Origin: an uncultured Alphaproteobacteria bacterium
GTDB taxonomy: Bacteria > Pseudomonadota > Alphaproteobacteria > ATCC43930 > CGMCC-115725
DNA: 64,000 nucleotides
Assembly (NCBI GenBank): GCA_963812675.1
Contig: CAWEWR010000006.1
Span: 284,723 to 348,722, forward strand
Direction: 5' to 3'
This document shows positions 41,702 through 57,680 of this stretch, piece by piece. The notes beneath the pieces were generated by a model. The model was not told the origin of the DNA and did not search any database. It worked only from the letters and a program-made list of their open reading frames with translations. Made by a program: the position numbers and the translations under genes. The stretch's first letter is position 1. Each line of letters opens with the position of its first letter.

Positions 41702-41891
41702 ACTCCTTGGCCGCCCGCTTTACACGGTGCCGTCGCCGCGCAGCGCGGAAGAACGCTGGCTGAGCATCGGCGAGTTAAATGGGCGCTTTCTCTGCGTGGT
41801 TTGGACGTGGCGAGGCGGGGCCATTCGGGTCATCACGATGAGGAGAGCCCGCGATGAAGAAAAGCGACGATACCGCACGCTATACGGCTGA
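41691..41891 (+). pseudogene. brnT: 5'-truncated brnT (DUF497 ribonuclease toxin) remnant
   Basis: Only the C-terminal part is present: EERWLSIGELNGRFLCVVWTWRGGAIRVITMRRARDEEKRRY. There is no start codon or N-terminal half. The open frame begins right after a TGA at 41688-41690. Confidence 0.6.
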
Positions 41892-42186
41892 ACAGCTCGC
41901 AACGATGCGTCGGCGCGGCGAGAGCCGCACCGACTGGGCGCGGTTCGATGCGACGACGCAGGCCGAGCTGGAGGCCAGCATCGCCGCCGATCCCGACGAC
42001 GTGCATGAGGCGCCGCAATGGGACCAGGCCGTGCTGGGCCTGCCGCCCCGAAAGGAGCACATCAATATCCGCGTCGATGCGGACGTGCTGGAGTGGTTCA
42101 GGCAAACCGGCCGAGGCTATCAGACCCGCATGAACAACGTCTTGCGTGCTTTCGTCGAGAGCCGCAGGCGCATGCGCCAATCATGA
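41854..42186 (+). CDS. brnA: BrnA antitoxin (DUF4415 family)
   Basis: INIRVDADVLEWFRQTGRGYQTRMNNVLRAFVE is the characteristic BrnA C-terminus. It overlaps the brnT remnant by 38 nt. Confidence 0.8.
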   Translation: MKKSDDTARYTAEQLATMRRRGESRTDWARFDATTQAELEASIAADPDDVHEAPQWDQAVLGLPPRKEHINIRVDADVLEWFRQTGRGYQTRMNNVLRAFVESRRRMRQS

Positions 42187-42261: not shown

Positions 42262-42360
42262 AATTCCGGGATCCTTTACGACCGCGCCCGGCGACTACCC
42301 CCGCAGACCCCCAGGTGGCCAGCCGGCAGCCTTGCGCGGTCGTGTCGAACTCCGGCATCG
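42262..42360 (-). pseudogene. fragment of a third terminase-large-subunit-like gene
   Basis: MPEFDTTAQGCRLAT and the underlying DNA match 47895-47950 and 56240-56297. Homology ends exactly at 42360, next to the stop of the kinase gene. Confidence 0.6.
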
Positions 42361-42870
42361 TTATGGCATGCCGCGAGCCACAATGCCCGTGGCCACGGCA
42401 ATCGCTAGGTCGCGGTCGGTCACTGGAAGACTAAGTTGCCGCAGAACATAGATATAACCACAAGCCAACACTTCCCTGTCGCCGAAGCCCTCAGCATGCG
42501 CCCACGTCCGCGCGGCGCGGATATACTCAGGGACCAATGAGAGCGCGCAGAATGCCTCCCGATCGAACCAGTCGATAGTGCCGGATCCTGCGGCCCACTG
42601 CAGCAAGTCCCGATGCCCATGCGGGTGAAAGAACGGGCTCAGTTCCAGTGTTACGGCTTCGAGCGCGCTCGGTAGCGGCCGAACCGACCCATAATCGATC
42701 AACATCACCCGATTGTTGATGTCGACCCGCGCGTTTTCCCCATGAAGATCACCATGCCGCGTACAGATATTGACGGAAATCTCCCTGTCTTCGAAGCGCT
42801 GCCAGTCAATTGATCCCAGCTGGGCGTGAAGCGCATGCAGCCGGTCTTCTCGGACCACCAGTTTCGCCAA
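42361..42870 (-). CDS. protein-kinase / aminoglycoside-phosphotransferase-like C-lobe (downstream half of the split receiver-kinase)
   Basis: Catalytic loop HGDLHGENARVD and metal-binding LIDYG. In the same frame as 42898..43788, separated by TGA plus 9 codons. Confidence 0.65.
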   Translation of the reverse strand: MAKLVVREDRLHALHAQLGSIDWQRFEDREISVNICTRHGDLHGENARVDINNRVMLIDYGSVRPLPSALEAVTLELSPFFHPHGHRDLLQWAAGSGTIDWFDREAFCALSLVPEYIRAARTWAHAEGFGDREVLACGYIYVLRQLSLPVTDRDLAIAVATGIVARGMP

Positions 42871-42897
42871 TTCGCCTATGGGTCTTTGTCTGGTGAT

Positions 42898-43788
42898 TCA
42901 ACTCATAAACCAAGGTTCCTCGGTATGTCGGAGCATCCGCACGCAGGCGGCCCCATCGGCATCAGACTCGTGTAAAACCTGAAACAGTGACCGGTCATAG
43001 CCGTCAAGCAGGCGGTAGAACGCGCCCTTTTTTCCTGCGACACGCGCAATTTCTCCACTAACGACTGGAGCATAAGTACCGGCCGGCAGCCTTACGATCT
43101 CCTGCTCGTAATTCAGCATCTCCCTTGCAATTATATTATAGTCGCCAAGCTTACTTGCTGCTGATATCCGAACGCCGCCTTGAGCGTCCCTGACATCGGC
43201 TTTCAGCACACTCGCGCCGGACAACCCGTCGCTTAGAACTTCAATATCGACGCACACTCCATTTTGGCGGCGCGCAAAGCAACGCAATAATCTCGCTTCG
43301 GCTTCGTTCAATGACATACCGGCACCCTTGGTATTAATCTCTATATCATCCGTTACCCGAGCGGTCTTAGCTATCTCCGCAGCGGCTTCGTAGAAAGGTC
43401 TAAGAGTGGCTTTTTGAAAGCGCCGGATCAGTCCAATTGGTTTGCGATCTCCCCAAACATCGCATTGCCTTCCCTCGGCGATTAATTGATCGACATACTC
43501 CTCTTCCATCGGTAAGCCAGTCAGGAAAAAGAGCGGCGTGTCCGGCGCCTTCTCCTGCACCGCACCAAGAACGGCTCTGCCGTGAATAACATCGGGGTCT
43601 AACCGCCCCGGCGCGGTCGGAATGCGCTGATCCAGCACGATCAGGTCGAATACCTTAGCACCGACCCGGCCGATTGCCGTATCCCTGTCCTCAGCTACCT
43701 CGACATTGCCGGCACCAAAGATCCTCTCTAATTCTGGCAAGATGCTCGCAACGCGAGCTAGCTCGTCCTCGACCAGAAGACAGCGCAT
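42898..43788 (-). CDS. response-regulator receiver domain fused to kinase-like N-lobe (upstream half)
   Basis: REC motifs CLLVEDE, DLIVLDQRIP and LFFLTG. Followed by the glycine-loop-like LSDGLSGASVLKADV. Ends at an in-frame TGA (42898-42900). Confidence 0.7.
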   Translation of the reverse strand: MRCLLVEDELARVASILPELERIFGAGNVEVAEDRDTAIGRVGAKVFDLIVLDQRIPTAPGRLDPDVIHGRAVLGAVQEKAPDTPLFFLTGLPMEEEYVDQLIAEGRQCDVWGDRKPIGLIRRFQKATLRPFYEAAAEIAKTARVTDDIEINTKGAGMSLNEAEARLLRCFARRQNGVCVDIEVLSDGLSGASVLKADVRDAQGGVRISAASKLGDYNIIAREMLNYEQEIVRLPAGTYAPVVSGEIARVAGKKGAFYRLLDGYDRSLFQVLHESDADGAACVRMLRHTEEPWFMS

Positions 43789-43797
43789 GATTGCCTC

Positions 43798-44688
43798 TCA
43801 TTTGCTGAGGCCAATAACCGGCCAGGTGAGAGTGAGGACGCAGCCCTTGTCCTTTTGGGGGATCAGCTCGGCAGTCCCCGACAAGGAAACCATCGCAGCC
43901 CGCAGGGCCGGTAGGCCGTGTCCGATATGGCCCTTGCTGCTCGTGCCAATCTCGAAAGCCCCGGGGATGCTGCCGTGAAAGCCGATACCCTCATCGAGGA
44001 TCGATATCCAGTAATCGCGGTCCGTCGCATCCCAGTTGATGACGATCGCCGGCCTGTGGTCCGCCGTCGCCACGGGAAGGCACGCCTCGATAGAATTGCG
44101 CAGCCCATTCGTGACTGCCATCGTGATAAGCGACGGATCGCCCTGTACCAACAACGGAGCTGGTCCAGCAAAACTCAGCAGACACTTACTGTGCTCAAGA
44201 TCATGGGGCAGGCAGTCACGAATAACCGTGGCCAGATCGAAATCTTCAATTACCGCTGGCTTGGCGGCGTTATAGAGCTTTGCAATAGCTGCGACCTGTA
44301 ATTTGATCTGACCTATCCGCGTTTTCGTTTCGCTCGCTTCGAAGTCCACAATTTCGGCTGCCGCTCTTTGCTCGATATCCCCAATAAGTGGATTTAGCTG
44401 ATGAAGCACACGCTCCGTCACATGGCGCAGTGACTTCACATAGGCTTCGTCGTAAATCGCTTTCGCCTGCTCCGCCGGCGGTTCCGCCGCAACCGGCACC
44501 TGCGCGCTCAACGCTTGAAGGGCAGAAGCGAATTGTTGCCTGATCTGCGGCACCGTTTCGCCGTAGAACGCCGCCTCGATCACGTTGCGATCGACGAGAG
44601 TTGGGTTGGCGGCGATCTCCCGGCCGGCAAGACGGCGATCGGCCGAGCGCTTCGATGACACGAGGGCGGCAAACTGTTCAGGCGTCAT
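43798..44688 (-). CDS. soluble histidine kinase (DHp + HATPase_c), no TM or classical sensor domain
   Basis: H-box-like SLRHVTERVLHQLNPL, N-box NGLRNSIEA, G1 DEGIGF and G2 GHGLPAL. Short HEAT-like N-terminus. ATGA overlap with the upstream ATPase gene. Confidence 0.75.
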   Translation of the reverse strand: MTPEQFAALVSSKRSADRRLAGREIAANPTLVDRNVIEAAFYGETVPQIRQQFASALQALSAQVPVAAEPPAEQAKAIYDEAYVKSLRHVTERVLHQLNPLIGDIEQRAAAEIVDFEASETKTRIGQIKLQVAAIAKLYNAAKPAVIEDFDLATVIRDCLPHDLEHSKCLLSFAGPAPLLVQGDPSLITMAVTNGLRNSIEACLPVATADHRPAIVINWDATDRDYWISILDEGIGFHGSIPGAFEIGTSSKGHIGHGLPALRAAMVSLSGTAELIPQKDKGCVLTLTWPVIGLSK

Positions 44689-46532
44689 TCATTCGAATGC
44701 CGTCTATAGAAATCCGCGCGCGTCCGAAATGCTTCGATACCGCCCTCCATCACGCCCGTGATCGCAGCTACCGTTTTCGGATGGTCAAGCGGCTCGGCGT
44801 GCATGACAAAGCCACGGCGCCCATTCGATCCGAGCCGCGCGACACGCGCGGCCTCACCCAGAACCGGTATGTTTGCGTTGTGTGTGGTAAAGAGGATCTG
44901 ACCCTTGGCGGACCGCTTTCTGATTGCGCCGATCAAAGTCTCGACGATGAAGGCGTTGTCCAGATGATCCTCGGGCTGATCAACGATCAAAACGCGATCA
45001 GGATTTTGCAGCAAGATTGACAGGACGACTGTACAGCGCTGCCCCACAGACACGCTGTCCATCGGCTTAAAGTCCGCGCCATCGAGCAATTCGAAATCGA
45101 CCGCGTCTTCCAGAGCGATACTGATTATGTTGTCGCTGCCGCCAGCCCGCAGCTGGGCTGCAATCCGTTCGGCGCGATCCAGGCTGATCTTCGCCGTTTT
45201 GCTGATAAATTGGACGTCGTTGGCTTCAACGGCCTCTATCAATTCGCGAGGCGTCATAGTGACGACTATGGCCCTGGCGAGTTCATTATACCTCAGCCCG
45301 CTGCCGCGCAGCACGTTGATTACCGCGCCGACAAATTCGCTGACCTGAGCCGCCTGCCGGACCCTCACGCGGATAAACGGCGACAAATTGCTCGTCAGCA
45401 GCTTGGCGATGCGCTGTCGCTCCGCACACCGCGCTTCCCGCAGGGCATCGAGCTCGTCGAGCAGGGCGCGGCGCTGCTTCTGTACCCGTCCAGCCCGCTC
45501 CAGCCTTTGGCCCACCAAAGCCTTCAGCGCTTCCAGCTGGGTCGATTTCTCCCTCAAACCGGCCAATTGCCGGGCCGCGGCGCCGGCACCCTCCTTGAGA
45601 CCTTCGACCTCTCGCCGGATGGCCCGCGCCTGCTCTTCCAGCGGCGCACGCTCTTTCTCGACCGCTCGGATCGACGCTTCGATGTCCTCTACGGACGCGG
45701 CGAGCAGGTCGTGCGCGGAATTGATATGTCTCTCCGCTTGGGCGAGCTTAAGCCGAACCGGTTGAAGTATGTCGGTTGCGCCGGCCGACCTCGGCCAATC
45801 ATCGAGCGAGAAGCCGAAGACTTTGACCCCCTCCGTCTCATCGCGATAATTTTTCGTGGTTTCCAACGCGCGACGCAAAGCATCGCCTCTGACAGCCAAA
45901 TTCGCGCTCTGGGCAGCTAGTCCCTCAAGCTGCTTCTGCTTCGCATCCAGAAGCGATGAGCTCTTCGAAATTTCCGCGGCGCGTGCCTCGGCGCGGTTCA
46001 GCTCGACGACGATACTCTCCGAACCGGCTAACCGCTCGCTGATCTCATCCGCTTCGCGCAATAGGCTAAACACCTCGGTCGTCAACGAGCGTATTTGCGT
46101 AACAAGCCTGCGTTCCTCGGAACGCTGCACCGAGCTCGCCGGCAGAAACAAATCGACAATGTTCAACCGGCCCCGACTACTCAGGCCGACCAACTCCAGG
46201 TTGTTCTGCGAGAAAATCAGGGGGCGCGAGAGCCCTGGTTCCAGCCCCTCGGGCTCGGCGTTCGCCGCCCGCGAGATATCGATGTCGTTTTCTCCATCTT
46301 CGATCGAGAGCGTAACCTGACCATCTTGCAGAACCGACAACGCTTGTTCTCGCGAGCGTTTCTGATCTTCCTCGTCCGCCGATCCGGGTTGGTCGAAACA
46401 ATACCGGATCAGCTCGATAACCGATGATTTGCCGGTGCCGCGCCCGCCGATCAGCACGTTTAGCCCCGGCTCAAACCGGAGGTCCAAACCATCGAGAAAG
46501 CCGCCCTCGACCTGCATCCGCCTGACGATCAC
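44685..46532 (-). CDS. SMC/Rad50-like ABC-type ATPase with central coiled-coil-like region
   Basis: Walker A GGRGTGKSS at residues 29-37. Middle of about 250 aa rich in A/E/R/L/Q. Signature-like SVGQR and Walker B/D-loop VLIVDQPEDHLD, then FTTHN. Confidence 0.8.
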   Translation of the reverse strand: MIVRRMQVEGGFLDGLDLRFEPGLNVLIGGRGTGKSSVIELIRYCFDQPGSADEEDQKRSREQALSVLQDGQVTLSIEDGENDIDISRAANAEPEGLEPGLSRPLIFSQNNLELVGLSSRGRLNIVDLFLPASSVQRSEERRLVTQIRSLTTEVFSLLREADEISERLAGSESIVVELNRAEARAAEISKSSSLLDAKQKQLEGLAAQSANLAVRGDALRRALETTKNYRDETEGVKVFGFSLDDWPRSAGATDILQPVRLKLAQAERHINSAHDLLAASVEDIEASIRAVEKERAPLEEQARAIRREVEGLKEGAGAAARQLAGLREKSTQLEALKALVGQRLERAGRVQKQRRALLDELDALREARCAERQRIAKLLTSNLSPFIRVRVRQAAQVSEFVGAVINVLRGSGLRYNELARAIVVTMTPRELIEAVEANDVQFISKTAKISLDRAERIAAQLRAGGSDNIISIALEDAVDFELLDGADFKPMDSVSVGQRCTVVLSILLQNPDRVLIVDQPEDHLDNAFIVETLIGAIRKRSAKGQILFTTHNANIPVLGEAARVARLGSNGRRGFVMHAEPLDHPKTVAAITGVMEGGIEAFRTRADFYRRHSNE

Positions 46533-46864
46533 CGGGCTACCTCTCCCTTACACCAGCATCCCATTCCCACCCAGACATGCTCCTCCAACCGATCAGCGTT
46601 CGCCTCTCCCGTCCCCGGCCTGCGGCGTAGCTTAGCATTTGGCGGAACGCTCGCTAACCCCAACCTTGGGGCCCTTCCTAAACGGCTGCTCAGGTGAAGG
46701 GTTTTCGGATGCCGGCTCGTCGTGACCTATCCGCGCGTGATGAAGGCCGGCGTCCGAAAGCCTCCCAGGGGGGAACCGGCGGGGGTTGGTTGGTAAGTCT
46801 GCCGTGACCAGGCTCGCGCCTCACCCCGCCATTCTCAGCAACTGCGGAAGCCGACCGCCGACAG

Positions 46865-48361
46865 CTACGCCGGCTTCGGTGTCGGCGGATCGCGAAGCTC
46901 TTCGGCGAGCATTCTGTAATAACCGTAGAAGCCGCCCGGCTCTCGACTGGCGCCTTTGAACCAGTCGAGCATTTGGGCGGTCGAGTCGACTTGGTCGTCG
47001 TGCTTGGCGTTGGGGAAGGTGGACAGCTCGGCGAGGTATCGGGCGAGCCATGGCGCCTCTTCGGGCAGGTGCACGAAGCCGTTCTCGATCATTGCGGTCT
47101 GCGCGTGCATTCGCATGACCTTGTCCGACTGCGGGCGGTAGCGGGTGACGGCGTGGAGGCCGTCGGCGATCAGTTCCTGGATCAATTGCGTGCCCGAGGC
47201 CTTGTCCTCGATCAATACGACCGAGGGGGCGAAGCGCTCGTATTGCTCGCGCACGGCGCGCTTCAATTCGGGATACTCCATGCGCCGGCGCAAGACGTTG
47301 ATCAAATAGAGGTTCTTGCCCGCGACGCCCCAGCTCGTGCACACGCTGAAATCGCTGAGCTCGGTCGCCTTGTTGGCGGTGTCCCAGCTCTGCGCGATGC
47401 GCTCGAAGCGCGGCGGCAACTCGTCGGGCGCGTAGCGCCGGAACCAGGCCGCCTTGACGAGGCCGCCGCCCAATGGGGCAGGGGCCTGCTGGTACTGGCC
47501 GGCGAAATTGTATTCCCCGATCGTGCGGCGGATATGCGCGAGCACCGCATCGGGCTCGCGCTCCGGGTGCAACGCCTCGCCGCGGCGGCGCGCGAATTGT
47601 TGCGGGCCCAGCACCGTGTCGACGAGCAGCGCCTCGTCCTCCTCGGCGAATGCCGGGAAGCGCACGGTCTCCCACGCCTCCTGCGCCAGCACGTGGCCGG
47701 TGAGGTCGTCTTCCTGCAATCGGTGCATGATGAGGACGATCGCGCCGGTGAGCTTGTCGTTGAGACGGCTGTAGAGGGTGTGGTCGAACCAGTCGTTCGC
47801 CGCCTGGCGCTGGGTTTGCGACAATGCCTCCTCGGGCTTTAAGGGATCGTCGATGACGATGAGGTCGGCGCCGCGCCCGGTCAATACGCCGCCGACCGAG
47901 GTGGCGAGGCGGCAGCCCTGCGCGGTCGTGTCAAATTCGGGCATCGCGGCGCGCAGCGGCGACAGGCGCGTCGGGAAGATCCTTTGGTACCAGTCGCTGG
48001 CGACGATATGCCGGCAATCGCGCGACAATTTGTCGGCGAGGTCCTGCGCATAGCTGACGCAGAGGATCTGCGCCGACGGGTCGTGCCCGAGACACCACGC
48101 CGGAAACGCGACCGAGGCGAGCAGCGACTTCAGGTGGCGCGGCGGCAGGTTGACGACGAGGCGGCGGATGGCGCCGGTGCGCACTGCGGTCAATTTGGCG
48201 GCGATGATTTCGATATGCCAGCTCATCGCGAAGCGGGTGCGCGGGTTGAGCTCACGAAAGGCGCGCGCGGCAAAGTCGTACCACAGGAATGCCGCACAAG
48301 AGTCGTGCCCGCGTCGCCGCAACGAGGGCGGCTCTGACGCATCGCGTATTAATTGCCACAT
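46865..48361 (-). CDS. phage terminase large subunit-like protein, copy 1
   Basis: ATPase Walker B-like ADLIVIDDP. C-terminal nuclease-like VLIEDKASG and HDDQVDSTAQMLDW. About 90% identical to copy 2. Start uncertain. Confidence 0.75.
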   Translation of the reverse strand: MWQLIRDASEPPSLRRRGHDSCAAFLWYDFAARAFRELNPRTRFAMSWHIEIIAAKLTAVRTGAIRRLVVNLPPRHLKSLLASVAFPAWCLGHDPSAQILCVSYAQDLADKLSRDCRHIVASDWYQRIFPTRLSPLRAAMPEFDTTAQGCRLATSVGGVLTGRGADLIVIDDPLKPEEALSQTQRQAANDWFDHTLYSRLNDKLTGAIVLIMHRLQEDDLTGHVLAQEAWETVRFPAFAEEDEALLVDTVLGPQQFARRRGEALHPEREPDAVLAHIRRTIGEYNFAGQYQQAPAPLGGGLVKAAWFRRYAPDELPPRFERIAQSWDTANKATELSDFSVCTSWGVAGKNLYLINVLRRRMEYPELKRAVREQYERFAPSVVLIEDKASGTQLIQELIADGLHAVTRYRPQSDKVMRMHAQTAMIENGFVHLPEEAPWLARYLAELSTFPNAKHDDQVDSTAQMLDWFKGASREPGGFYGYYRMLAEELRDPPTPKPA

Positions 48362-48450
48362 CGCGCTTGCGATCGAAGGTGCCAACGATGCACCCTTGAT
48401 TCACCTATCGTCCCTAAACCTAATTTACCGACGAATACCTGGGGGCACGC

Positions 48451-51309: not shown

Positions 51310-51999
51310 ATGCCGTACATGCTCCAGATGCTGCGGGCGCTGATGCAGGAGCATCCGGACCGGGCAGAACGTTTGCGCGTGCATGTCGAGGCGTTGGAGG
51401 CCAGCATCGAGGGTCAGCCGGCGTTCTGCCTTCAAAACGTGCGGACCTTGTTCGAGGCGGCGCATGCGACGATCGCTCCGCAACTGGGGGTGACATTCGG
51501 GAAAAGCAGCGGCTTCCCCGGTCGTATGCGCAGTGTGATCGAGAAGATGGACTTCTCGATTACCGATCATCCGGACGCCACCAAGATACATGCGACGATC
51601 ACCGCCTTGCTGAAGGGCATCGACGACACAGCGGTTGCGCTGGCGGATCTCAGCAACATTCCCAATATGCGTCATGGCGGCTCGCTTGATTGGGGCACGC
51701 TCGAACGCCAGCACGCGTTGATGCTCGGCGGATTGTGCGACGCGCTGGTGAGCTTCCTATTCGGTGTCGCCTGGCGGCGCCCGGCGGCAGGGGCGACAGC
51801 GCCGGGGCCCGATCGCTACGAGGATTTCGCGGCATTCAATACCTGGCTCGACGACGAGCACGAGAACGTGGAAATCGCCGGTTCGCTGTTCCTGCCGAGC
51901 AAAATCCTGTACCTGCTGGACACCACACAGTACGAGGCCGTGCGGATGGATTGGGAGGCCCAGCAGGCGATCAACGTCGCCGGTCGGGAGGCTCAGTGA
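51310..51999 (+). CDS. unknown protein embedded in the type I R-M operon (possibly Abi_C-like)
   Basis: Starts 2 nt after the hsdS stop, and its stop overlaps the hsdR GTG (GTGA). [10 protein letters not shown] weakly recalls the RN..G.aHG motif of abortive-infection C-terminal domains. Not verified. Confidence 0.5.
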
Positions 52000-55181: not shown

Positions 55182-56696
55182 TCACCTGCCGAGAAGCCCC
55201 AACCGCTTCGCGATCGCCGATAACGGCTCGGGGAGCTGGGTCTGCGGCTCTTGGGCGAGAGCCCTGTAATATCGGTAGAACCCGCCCGGCTCCCGGCCTG
55301 CGCTCTTGAACCAGTCGAGCATTTGGGCGGTCGAGTCGACCTGGTCGTCGTGCTTGGCGTTGGGGAAGGCGGTCAGCTCGGCGAGGTATGGGGCGAGCCA
55401 CGGGGCCGCCGCCGGGAGATAGACAAAGCCGTTCTCGATCATTGCGGTTTGCGCGTGCAGGCGCATGACCTTGTCCGACTGCGGGCGGTAGCGGGTGACG
55501 GCGTGGAGGCCGTCGGCGAGCAATTCCTGGATCAATTGCGTGCCCGACGCCTTGTCCTCGATCAGCACGACCGAGGGCGCGAACCGCTCGTATTGCTCGC
55601 GCACTGCGCGCTTCAATTCGGGGTATTCCATGCGGCGGCGTAAGACGTCGATCAGGTAGAGGTTCTTGCCCGCGACGCCCCAGCTCGTGCAGACGCTGAA
55701 ATCGCTGAGCTCGGTCGCCTTGTTGGCGGTGTCCCAGCTCTGCACGATGCGCTCGAAGCGCGGCGGCGCTTCGTCCGGCCCGTGGCGCCGGAACCAGGCC
55801 GCCTTGACGAGGCCGCCGCCCAACGGGGCGGGCGCCTGCTGGTATTGCCCCGCGAAATTGTATTCGCCGATCGTGCGGCGGATATGCGCGAGCACCGCCA
55901 AGGGCTCGCGCTCCGGGTGCAACGCCTCGCCGCGGCGGCGCGCGAAATGTTGCGGCCCCAGCACCGTGTCGACGAGCAGCGCCTCGTCCGCCTCGGCGAT
56001 CGCCGGGAAGCGCACGGTCTCCCACGCCTCCTGCGCCAGCACATGGCCGACGAGATCATCCTCGTGCAATCGGTGCATGATGAGGACGATCGCGCCCCCG
56101 AGCTTGTCGTTGAGGCGGCTGTAGAGGGTGTGATCGAACCAGTCGTTGGCCGCCTGGCGCTGGGTTTGCGACAATGCCTCCTCGGGCTTTAAGGGATCGT
56201 CGATGACGATGAGGTCGGCGCCGCGCCCGGTCAAGACGCCGCCGACCGAGGTGGCGAGCCGGCAGCCCTGCGCCGTCGTGTCGAATTCGGGCATCGCGGC
56301 GCGCTGCGGCGACAGGCGGGTCGGGAAGACCCTTTGGTACCAGCCGCTGGCGAGGATATGCCGGCAATCGCGCGACAGTTTGTCGGCGAGGTCCTGCGCA
56401 TAGCTGACGCACAGGATCTGCGCCGACGGGTCGTGCCCGAGACACCACGCCGGAAACGCGACCGAGGCGAGCAATGACTTCAGGTGGCGCGGCGGCAGGT
56501 TGACGACGAGGCGGCGGATGCCGCCGTCGCGCACGGCGATGAGTTTCGCGGCGATGATCTCGACGTGCCAGTTCATCGCAAAGCGCGTCCGCGGGTTCAA
56601 TTCGCGGAAGCAGCATTGCGCAAAGCTGACCAGATCGCGCCGCAGCAGCGCCTGGTACTCGGAGTGGCTCAGCGTCTGCCGGACTATAGGTTTCAC
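55182..56696 (-). CDS. phage terminase large subunit-like protein, copy 2
   Basis: Collinear with copy 1 at an offset of 8350 nt. The GTG 56696 start after GGAGGA is tentative. The upstream ORF extension runs through a REP-like element. Confidence 0.75.
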   Translation of the reverse strand: MKPIVRQTLSHSEYQALLRRDLVSFAQCCFRELNPRTRFAMNWHVEIIAAKLIAVRDGGIRRLVVNLPPRHLKSLLASVAFPAWCLGHDPSAQILCVSYAQDLADKLSRDCRHILASGWYQRVFPTRLSPQRAAMPEFDTTAQGCRLATSVGGVLTGRGADLIVIDDPLKPEEALSQTQRQAANDWFDHTLYSRLNDKLGGAIVLIMHRLHEDDLVGHVLAQEAWETVRFPAIAEADEALLVDTVLGPQHFARRRGEALHPEREPLAVLAHIRRTIGEYNFAGQYQQAPAPLGGGLVKAAWFRRHGPDEAPPRFERIVQSWDTANKATELSDFSVCTSWGVAGKNLYLIDVLRRRMEYPELKRAVREQYERFAPSVVLIEDKASGTQLIQELLADGLHAVTRYRPQSDKVMRLHAQTAMIENGFVYLPAAAPWLAPYLAELTAFPNAKHDDQVDSTAQMLDWFKSAGREPGGFYRYYRALAQEPQTQLPEPLSAIAKRLGLLGR

Positions 56697-56699
56697 CTC

Positions 56700-56870
56700 C
56701 AAAATTTCCTCCTCTCCCCCCGCCGGCCGGGGAGAGGGTAGGGTGAGGGGGGCCGACGAGGTTTTCGCGCTTGCGGCGCCGCCCACCTCACCCTCCCGTC
56801 GCTGCGCGCCGGGTCCCTCCCCCGGATCGCGTCCGGGGCAGGCTCTCTCCCCCCTAAAGGGCGGAGAGGG
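56700..56870. repeat. REP-like GC-rich palindromic element between DUF5681 and the terminase gene
   Basis: ccggggagagggtagggtgagggggg, its partial complement cccacctcaccctccc, and ctctcccccctaaagggcggagagggg. Same motif family as 25263-25426. Confidence 0.45.
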
Positions 56871-57282
56871 GCTCATCCGTGTCTCCGTGGTAAAGCTTTG
56901 CCGATTCCATACGCCGCAGGCGGGCCAGCAAATTTTCGACGACCTCCTCGTCTGCGGGCGTGAACGGCGGCGCTTCCGGCGGCGGCGCGGTGCCGGCCCG
57001 CTTTTCGATGTCCTTCAGCATGTCGATCAGCATCTTGGTCGCACGCAGATCGGCGCCGGTCGATTTGTCGACCAATTGCGCGATGACCGCCTCGCGCTTG
57101 GTGATCTGCCGGCTGTGGCCGTCGGTCGTGACGATGACCGGCTCGTCGAGCGCGCGCACCAGCAACTCCGGCAGGTTTTTCGGGCGCGGGCCGCGCGGGT
57201 TGCCGGACTGGCCCTTCTGGAACCGGCTGTGCAGCGGCGGCCTGCCGCGGCCGACCTTGTATTCGCCAGCGCTCTCATCCAT
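56854..57282 (-). CDS. DUF5681 domain protein (commonly paired with this terminase-like gene)
   Basis: GRGRPPLHSRFQKGQSGNPRGPRPKN is the DUF5681 signature. Confidence 0.7.
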   Translation of the reverse strand: MDESAGEYKVGRGRPPLHSRFQKGQSGNPRGPRPKNLPELLVRALDEPVIVTTDGHSRQITKREAVIAQLVDKSTGADLRATKMLIDMLKDIEKRAGTAPPPEAPPFTPADEEVVENLLARLRRMESAKLYHGDTDEPLSAL

Positions 57283-57603: not shown

Positions 57604-57680
57604 CGGAGTGTAGCTCAGCCTGGTAGAGCACTGCTTTCGGGAGGCAGGGGCCGGAGGTTCAAATCCTCTCACTCCGACCA
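57604..57680 (+). tRNA. tRNA-Pro (anticodon CGG), CCA-encoded
   Basis: Cloverleaf folded by hand: acceptor CGGAGTG/CACTCCG, D arm GCTC/GAGC, anticodon stem CTGCT/GGCAG with loop TTCGGGA, T arm GGAGG-TTCAAAT-CCTCT, discriminator A, CCA. Confidence 0.9.

Follow-up and report, generated by a model that had tools for sequence, protein, structure and literature searches.

A horizontally mobile three-gene cassette of an SMC/Rad50-like ATPase, a soluble histidine kinase and a receiver-fused APH-like kinase: a candidate two-component-type conflict system

Detocs is the closest described precedent for an immune system based on a two-component relay. Mutation of its kinase His, its receiver Asp or its effector abolishes phage defence, which means that a His-Asp relay is able to drive an immune effector. 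Other described proteins resemble individual parts of the locus presented here. Ppl is a validated single-gene anti-phage protein, and the related ATPase TrlF belongs to a three-gene temperature-restriction locus (TRL) of Photorhabdus, for which growth arrest at 36-37 °C has been reported. The name TCAD9 was coined for a kinase domain attached to vWA-MoxR-VMAP systems, and the authors who coined it suggested that such APH-like kinases may act on small molecules. Here, a cassette of three genes is described that is located on the minus strand of a 64-kb window (the whole stretch of DNA analysed, from contig CAWEWR010000006.1 of an uncultured alphaproteobacterium). It encodes, in this order, an SMC/Rad50-like ABC ATPase, a soluble histidine kinase and a receiver domain fused to an APH/ChoK-like kinase domain. 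A first-pass annotation of this DNA had proposed an undescribed defence or signalling module at this place.

The cassette has a size of 4.3 kb. Gene 1 (44685-46532, 615 aa) starts with GTG and codes for the ATPase, gene 2 (43798-44688, 296 aa) for the histidine kinase and gene 3 (42361-43788, 475 codons) for the receiver (residues 1-147) and the kinase domain (approximately residues 176-475). In the open reading frame (ORF) list of the window, gene 3 appears as two ORFs (42898-43788 and 42361-42870), but its translation is one 475-codon frame with a single internal stop. The stop codon of gene 1 overlaps the start codon of gene 2 in an ATGA at 44685-44688. Genes 2 and 3 are joined by 'TGA gaggcaatc ATG', which leaves a gap of 9 nt before 43788. 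Both junctions were read from the sequence and confirm the coupling of three minus-strand genes proposed by the first-pass annotation. The motifs quoted there (GGRGTGKS, SVGQR, LIVDQPEDHLD, HGDLHGEN and LIDYG) are all present, and its domain assignments, including a gene 2 product without transmembrane or classical sensor domain, agree with Pfam. In none of the three proteins was a hydrophobic stretch of transmembrane grade found (maximal Kyte-Doolittle mean over 19 residues: 1.21).

Directly 5' of the GTG codon of gene 1, the ribosome-binding site GGGAGAGG is located in an upstream leader/promoter region (46533..46661, minus strand) that travels with the cassette. A promoter scan of this leader found no sigma-70 consensus promoter, and the promoter and terminator scan yielded no signal above shuffled expectation on the coding strand. 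The G+C content of the cassette is 0.57-0.59 compared to 0.64-0.71 in its flanks. Neither terminal repeats nor a target-site duplication were seen at the cassette borders.

According to their distribution, the three genes form one conserved unit. A scan with a profile of the histidine kinase covered one genome per species in 185,579 species. It yielded 39 true family members, each with the trio in the order ATPase, kinase, receiver-kinase. In one of them (L018), the contig ends before gene 3 is reached, and one more locus, the fortieth, is preserved as a decayed remnant. The weakest matches of the scan, from Planctomycetota (L049-L057), belong to ordinary two-component systems of the NtrC or LuxR type and were set aside. 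Look-ups that started from effector homologues found the trio in six of six loci, and those that started from ATPase homologues (40-48% identity) in three of three. In the look-up loci, the ATPase comprises 607-649 aa, the HATPase_c protein 294-300 aa and the receiver-kinase 473-477 aa. This strict linkage at all loci is the opposite of the scattered homologues that the first-pass annotation had named as evidence against its own proposal.

Hosts of the trio are found among Alpha-, Beta- and Gammaproteobacteria, Chloroflexota, Verrucomicrobiota, Acidobacteriota, Planctomycetota, Spirochaetia, Nitrospirales, Actinomycetota and Melainabacteria and belong to more than 10 phyla. The distribution is patchy, and similarity between copies is independent of taxonomy. 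Cultured carriers include strains of Methylobacterium, Bradyrhizobium, Caulobacter, Pseudomonas and Agrobacterium. The conservation of catalytic residues was examined by comparison of 33 intact trios, to which all residue counts below refer. Median pairwise identities in this set are 41% for the ATPase, 33% for the kinase and 31% for the effector, and the identities of the three proteins correlate over 528 pairs with r = 0.89-0.91. As judged from these alignments, the three enzymes co-evolve, and their active sites are under strong purifying selection.

The cassette is also mobile. Window and locus L001 are 87.7% identical over 4311 nt, spanning 46661-42356. This homology comprises the three genes and about 130 bp upstream, begins at 46661 and ends 5 nt past the last stop codon. 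Since it is limited to the cassette and the flanks are unrelated, the cassette moves as a unit. The effector gene is present on 47 plasmid records, and the two that were opened both hold the whole trio. One is the conjugative IncFIB/FII plasmid pKp46596-2 of Klebsiella pneumoniae (L058), on which the trio is located near repA and adjoins a gene with an SMEK domain. The other is a Shinella plasmid with the trio between insertion sequence elements and relaxase/RepC. No near match of the Klebsiella cassette was found in 5,426 E. coli genomes. An effector homologue is found on 36 plasmid records of Piscirickettsia salmonis. In many of these, the matched region is annotated as two hypothetical proteins, which points to a split gene.

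Decay of the trio is frequent, as expected of costly accessory genes. Eight of the 40 species-level loci are split, truncated or decayed (L025, L031, L032, L033, L036, L044, L045 and L048), and the disrupted loci include those of three cultured isolates, Variovorax sp. E3, Pelagerythrobacter aerophilus and Hansschlegelia beijingensis. In L033, about 1 kb has been inserted between the ATPase and kinase genes.

Pfam, PADLOC-DB 2.0 and NCBIfam 20.0 (June 2026) were the model sets run on the three proteins. The only Pfam match of gene 2 is HATPase_c. Its product consists of an N-terminal helical region (residues 1-85), a DHp domain with H96 and a CA domain (residues 183-291). The family profile aligns with FixL-type DHp-CA structures (E 7e-10), with 'LlHelnpl' over the FixL H-box 'AHELNQPL'. 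H96 (codon at 44401..44403, minus strand), the predicted phospho-accepting histidine, is invariant and in register with the H-box His of FixL. N198, G234, G236, H254, G256 and G258 are invariant, too, and D232 is Asp in 32 of 33 proteins. No transmembrane, PAS, HAMP or TPR sensor domain was recognised in gene 2. Its N-terminal 85 or so residues, for which two of ten homologues gave a weak match to HEAT_2, are possibly HEAT-like. The absence of a recognised sensor domain is the main argument that the kinase would receive its signal from a partner protein.

Gene 3 matches Response_reg, TCAD9 (PF19974) and, weakly, APH in Pfam, and its AlphaFold2 (AF2) model has a pLDDT of 93.1. The receiver matches solved response regulators (E 1.4e-11) and is canonical except for an insertion of about 10 residues after D53. 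D53 (codon at 43630..43632, minus strand), the predicted phospho-accepting aspartate, is invariant, as are D8 and K126. Position 7 is Glu in 32 of 33 proteins (Asp in one), and position 90 is Thr in 28 and Ser in 5. The wiring from kinase to receiver postulated by the first-pass annotation is backed by the invariant H96 and D53; phosphotransfer between them is predicted. A DNA-binding output domain is not present in gene 3.

Instead, the receiver is followed by the kinase domain. Its catalytic loop H345-G-D347-L-H-G-E-N352 (HGDLHGEN; 42733..42756, minus strand) has invariant H345, D347, H349 and N352. The Mg-binding D365 (LIDYG), located 12 codons downstream of this loop, and the αC glutamate E223 are also invariant, and the β3 lysine K213 is Lys in 32 of 33 proteins and Arg in one. 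These residues and the structural model predict a catalytically complete protein-kinase-like enzyme with a bilobal fold. In a Foldseek search with the kinase domain, APH(3')-Ia was found with E 1.7e-6 and a TM score of 0.53-0.61 normalised to the target. Choline, ethanolamine and glucosamine kinases ranked next, and Hanks-type protein kinases lower. The receiver and the APH kinase fold expected by the first-pass annotation are therefore present, whereas its label 'protein kinase' exceeds the evidence because the nearest structures phosphorylate small molecules. The match to TCAD9 reaches 40.1 bits with a cut-off of 40.0 and comprises 61 residues (model positions 7-67 of 429). In precomputed tables, TCAD9 matches in the homologues are mostly marked 'weak'. 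Full membership in TCAD9 was rejected as unproven, since only this N-lobe match at threshold is available.

Gene 1 matches AAA_21, AAA_23 and SMC_N in Pfam. Its Walker A motif (P-loop) GGRGTGKS comprises residues 29-36 (46425..46448, minus strand) with invariant G32, G34 and K35. The ABC signature residues S495, G497 and Q498 and the Walker B/D-loop residues D518, E521 and D522 (44961..45050, minus strand) are invariant, as is H551 in the H-loop; Q109 in the Q-loop is Gln in 32 of 33 proteins. The signature and Walker B could be aligned to their ABC-F counterparts. In the AF2 model (pLDDT 86.7), the ABC head is divided by two long antiparallel helices. According to the secondary structure of this model, the arm comprises residues 133-383 (45384..46136, minus strand), with helices at 133-239 and 257-383 and a short apex at 240-256, SLDDWPRSAGATDILQP. 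At this apex, neither a CxxC zinc hook nor an SMC hinge was found, and it has no cysteine pair. The best structures found by Foldseek are those of the Smc head, MukB, JetC, Rad50, RecN and LmuB (E 1e-7 to 1e-10). Both structural checks suggested by the first-pass annotation thus yielded the folds it expected, an ABC head with a coiled coil and an APH-like kinase.

In gene 1, the coiled coil is separated from the C-terminal half of the head by a small helical insert (residues 397-470; 45123..45344, minus strand). Residues 418-462 of this insert match the NCBIfam model ruvA with E 2.6e-4, and its profile matches seven RuvA structures at residues 84-131 with marginal E-values of 0.003-0.035. As a weak lead, the insert may resemble RuvA domain II (helix-hairpin-helix) and is a candidate DNA binder.

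Which known proteins are the nearest relatives of gene 1? With the NCBIfam model TrlF, it aligns at E 1.8e-69 and 235.5 bits over model positions 296-943 of 944; the curated cut-off is 350. The match to the C-terminus of Ppl has E 1.8e-22 and 79 bits (NCBIfam cut-off 1000), and Spaf_1101 was also matched. Based on these alignments, gene 1 probably belongs to the TrlF/Ppl clade of PHP-fused ATPases, minus the N-terminal PHP domain. Its full length corresponds to the C-terminal two-thirds of the TrlF model. Whereas TrlF and Ppl carry an N-terminal PHP phosphoesterase domain of about 295 residues, gene 1 begins at the Walker A region and has no Pfam match to PHP. The partners differ as well: TrlF is accompanied by TrlG and TrlR, gene 1 by a kinase and a receiver-kinase. 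In evolutionary terms, one ATPase clade would have PHP as a fused domain in Ppl and TrlF and work with a detached phosphorelay and a kinase in the trio. The first-pass annotation had compared the ATPase with those of Lamassu, Gabija and Septu. A generic likeness to them exists, but the real relatives are probably the PHP-fused TrlF/Ppl ATPases.

A separate observation concerns the TRL locus itself. TrlG has AlbA_2 and HATPase_c_4 domains and thereby resembles a fusion of Schlafen and histidine-kinase-like domains, which a recent paper on phage defence reports as the architecture most often found in bacterial Schlafen proteins. Including its PHP-ABC ATPase TrlF, the TRL locus may be a defence system of Schlafen type in its own right.

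LmuB of Lamassu, JetC of Wadjet and Rad50/SbcC/RecN, which sense DNA ends or topology, also have an ABC head that is interrupted by a coiled coil of antiparallel helices. The arm of gene 1 is, however, short (approximately 105-125 residues per helix) and has no hinge or zinc hook, and the trio lacks kleisin/KITE, LmuA/LmuC, JetA/B/D or Mre11 partners. On the sequence level, the similarity is confined to the P-loop region, and the best LmuB match (E 1.6e-13) has its best stretch there at residues 18-48. No LmuA- or LmuC-like genes were found in scans of 139 neighbouring ORFs.

The likeness to Detocs is one of organisation. Both are three-gene cassettes in which a histidine kinase with a conserved His signals to a receiver with a conserved Asp that is fused to an enzymatic effector, not to a DNA-binding domain, and both are found in defence islands. 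In Detocs, however, DtcA senses by its own TPR repeats, whereas the kinase of the trio is sensor-less and paired with an SMC-like ATPase. The stand-alone buffer receiver DtcB has no counterpart in the trio. The effector DtcC is usually a PNP (ATP nucleosidase) and swappable, whereas the effector of the trio is an APH-like kinase in all 559 representatives of its family. An assignment of the trio to Detocs was therefore rejected: It has neither TPR sensor nor buffer receiver nor PNP effector, and no sequence match was obtained.

Regarding the effector, TCAD9, APH and choline kinases share with gene 3 the protein-kinase-like fold, the HGDxHxxN loop and the Mg-binding Asp in IDxG. In contrast to TCAD9 kinases, the kinase of the trio has a receiver fused to it and a histidine kinase as its partner, and vWA, MoxR or VMAP genes were found neither in the Pfam tables of the look-up loci nor among the 25 commonest neighbour families. 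Stk2, PglW (BREX) and the TerY-P triad also have a kinase as the presumed output of a conflict system. They use Hanks-type Ser/Thr kinases with other partners, and no similarity to them was detected in PADLOC.

No named or candidate system model of PADLOC-DB 2.0 matches genes 2 or 3 beyond the receiver, and none matches the histidine kinase. Gene 1 gave generic ABC-ATPase matches (Ppl, mad3, LmuB, AriA and GajA) and gene 3 receiver-only matches (an SduA variant and PDC-M60B/C). NCBIfam 20.0 has no family model for genes 2 and 3. In the full-text literature searched, which did not extend to some comparative-genomics surveys of possible relevance, the trio is not described. A DefensePredictor figure shows HATPase and REC domains along with a purine phosphorylase, a set that resembles Detocs and does not represent the trio. 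The receiver domains in the CoCoNuT paper are unrelated to it. The trio is hence regarded as a two-component-type conflict cassette that does not match any named system searched. This agrees with the first-pass annotation, which had recognised no named system, and both the novelty and the status 'undescribed' are provisional.

The surroundings of related loci were analysed with Pfam and PADLOC in the 139 nearest ORFs of 38 loci. Pfam found resolvases (5), ResIII (5), integrases, several transposases, TniB and a TrwC relaxase. Among the PADLOC matches are type III (3), type IV (2), type IIG and type I restriction enzymes, SoFic (2), HmaB/HmaC, a DpdE/ZorD-like helicase and DrmMI. No fourth conserved gene accompanies the trio, as each neighbour family occurs in at most 5 of the 139 ORFs. 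The loci looked up from effector homologues provide further examples. In one, genes for a TIR protein, a SIR2 protein and a ParB-methylase are adjacent. In another, the trio is located within an ICE (integrative and conjugative element) together with a Shedu gene, ArdC, ParB and a relaxase. A third has HEPN/nucleotidyltransferase (HEPN/MNT) and McrA-like genes beside an integrase, and a fourth a TPR-CHAT neighbour. Of the loci looked up from ATPase homologues, one has a methylase-ParB-DUF499 cluster and a PIN toxin-antitoxin pair, and one a type III restriction-modification (R-M) neighbour. As a qualitative point, these neighbourhoods are the typical setting of accessory defence genes. The mobile elements and defence islands that the first-pass annotation had expected are thus found at related loci, though not at L007.

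Taken together, linkage, mobility and defence context make defence the best-supported reading of the trio, although it is inferred. On balance, and with slightly better than even confidence, we regard the trio as a self-contained mobile conflict cassette, most probably an anti-phage or anti-plasmid immune system that appears to operate by an ATPase-controlled phosphorelay. According to the proposed mechanism, a dimer of the SMC/Rad50-like ATPase, equipped with coiled-coil arms and perhaps a helix-hairpin-helix insert, would recognise abnormal DNA of an invader such as ends, replication intermediates or small circles. ATP-driven engagement of the heads would be relayed to the histidine kinase, probably via its N-terminal helical domain. 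The kinase would then autophosphorylate at H96 and pass the phosphoryl group to D53 of the receiver, as deduced from the established two-component mechanism. The phosphorylated receiver would release, that is activate and not inhibit, the fused APH/ChoK-like kinase. This kinase would phosphorylate a target of the host or the invader, either a protein or a small molecule, and as a result either the infected cell would be arrested or the invader would be blocked. The more specific proposal, a new type of immune system in which a DNA-reading SMC/Rad50-like ATPase signals through a sensor-less kinase to a receiver-gated APH-like kinase, is possible, but we would put it a little below even. Whether the trio is a genuine new immune system at all appears to us as an approximately balanced question.

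Several points weigh against this reading. The evidence for the ATPase as the sensor that controls the kinase consists of gene linkage and the sensor-less nature of the kinase. The likeness of the ATPase insert to a helix-hairpin-helix is marginal (E ~0.003). The numbers of defence neighbours are raw and qualitative, without correction for the genomic background, and L007 lies among housekeeping genes without defence or mobile neighbours. Effectors are swapped in modular defence systems, among them Detocs, CBASS and Avs. No such swapping was seen here, and one architecture is found across all representatives of the effector family: At 50% clustering and E <= 1e-30, the family has 559 representatives, of which the best 150, fragments left out, comprise 449-486 aa and match end to end; effector homologues uniformly have 470-480 aa. 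Moreover, the trio has no buffer receiver or evident antitoxin-like safeguard against autoimmunity. A search of 50,697 phage genomes and 2.9 million viral contigs yielded no copy, a result that is neutral.

An alternative view is that the trio serves the mobile element that carries it, as a checkpoint for replication, partition or DNA damage or by excluding rival elements. The DNA monitored by the ATPase would then be that of the element itself, and the kinase would tune the physiology of host or element. This fits the frequent occurrence of the trio as plasmid or ICE cargo, for instance near repA on the IncF plasmid, beside relaxase/RepC in Shinella or in the ICE with ArdC, ParB and relaxase, and SMC-like ATPases commonly act on the topology of plasmid or chromosomal DNA, as do JetC and MukB among the Foldseek matches. 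Many copies are, however, chromosomal and reside beside restriction and defence genes, not beside genes for replication or partition, and the cassette moves alone between unrelated contexts. Exclusion of competing elements, in turn, overlaps with defence and does not contradict it. We consider a role confined to the carrying element unlikely, albeit worth serious attention.

The trio could also be an addiction module in which the kinase is a toxin restrained by the relay. It would then be maintained because its loss does harm, and would confer no anti-invader benefit. Toxic kinases like HipA and the zeta toxins are known elsewhere, and the cassette is compact and horizontally spread, lacks its own recombinase and is frequently disrupted. 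Nevertheless, an SMC-like sensor and a two-step phosphorelay far exceed the machinery needed for addiction, all three active sites are under strong purifying selection, and a component resembling a labile antitoxin is missing, so that this explanation seems quite improbable. Finally, an ordinary housekeeping two-component system might lie beside an ATPase gene by chance. The database names 'response regulator', 'sensor histidine kinase' and 'AAA family ATPase' would suit this, as would the ordinary NtrC- and LuxR-type systems to which the distant Planctomycetota matches belong. It is contradicted by the linkage and distribution data and thus hardly credible: The trio is linked at every locus examined in more than 10 phyla and lacks a DNA-binding output domain, it is patchily distributed (39 of 185,579 species representatives), its G+C content is below that of the host, and the flanks of its copies are unrelated. 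The preferred interpretation as an immune cassette agrees with that of the first-pass annotation, which as a whole is partly supported; defence, the coupling of ATPase and kinase and the substrate class of the effector stay inferred or predicted.

In the window, the cassette is part of a stretch of about 16 kb between putA and tRNA-Pro (57604-57680). In agreement with the first-pass annotation, this island also holds a type I R-M operon, a toxin-antitoxin remnant and two terminase-like genes. The remnant is an orphan BrnA antitoxin gene (41854-42186) without a recognisable BrnT toxin adjoining it. A gene with an Abi_C domain (51310-51999, 229 aa) is located inside the R-M operon between hsdS and hsdR. 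The two genes resembling terminase large subunits (46865-48385 and 55182-56876) are 90% identical to each other and bracket the R-M operon. A 51-nt remnant of such a gene (42310..42360, minus strand) abuts the 3' end of the cassette and is 86% identical to 47896-47946 in gene 46865-48385. The stretch looks as if cargo cassettes had been inserted repeatedly at a single site of a terminase-like gene. This site is possibly a defence hotspot of a satellite or of an element like a gene transfer agent.

The copy of gene 3 in the window contains an in-frame TGA at codon 297 (42898..42900, minus strand; translation of 42361-43788), between the N- and C-lobes of the kinase. The window is part of a 360-kb metagenome-assembled contig. 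A near-identical contig from a different sample (L064) has an intact gene with AAA (Lys) at this position. Its alignment with the window takes in the downstream terminase remnant and comprises 704 bases, of which 700 agree. At 42892-42900, the window reads ATGAGTTGA and L064 ATAAGTAAA; these are three substitutions within 7 nt, and one further mismatch is located elsewhere. This suggests a small complex mutation or a local error in the assembly consensus, so the window copy would be either freshly inactivated or mis-assembled. The stop codon mentioned by the first-pass annotation is hence present, but three substitutions in 7 nt of otherwise identical DNA make the pseudogene status of gene 3 uncertain. 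Recoding at the TGA was rejected, since homologues carry Lys, Gln, Pro or Thr there and not Cys or Sec. The ATPase and kinase genes of the window are intact, and identical protein sequences are found in other assemblies.

With its small size, its presence on a conjugative Klebsiella plasmid and its cultured hosts, the cassette is directly testable, and the catalytic residues for point mutants have been mapped. The trio raises the questions how engagement of the ATPase heads switches on a histidine kinase, what an enzyme similar to aminoglycoside kinases phosphorylates to stop an invader, and how autoimmunity is avoided without a buffer protein. If it acts in defence, it would bring together SMC-like DNA sensors and His-Asp phosphorelays, two machineries that are well studied but have not been seen in combination. 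It would then be the first system in which an SMC-family sensor signals into a His-Asp phosphorelay and, after Detocs, the second and a mechanistically distinct two-component-type defence, with a kinase instead of a nucleosidase as the killing or blocking activity.

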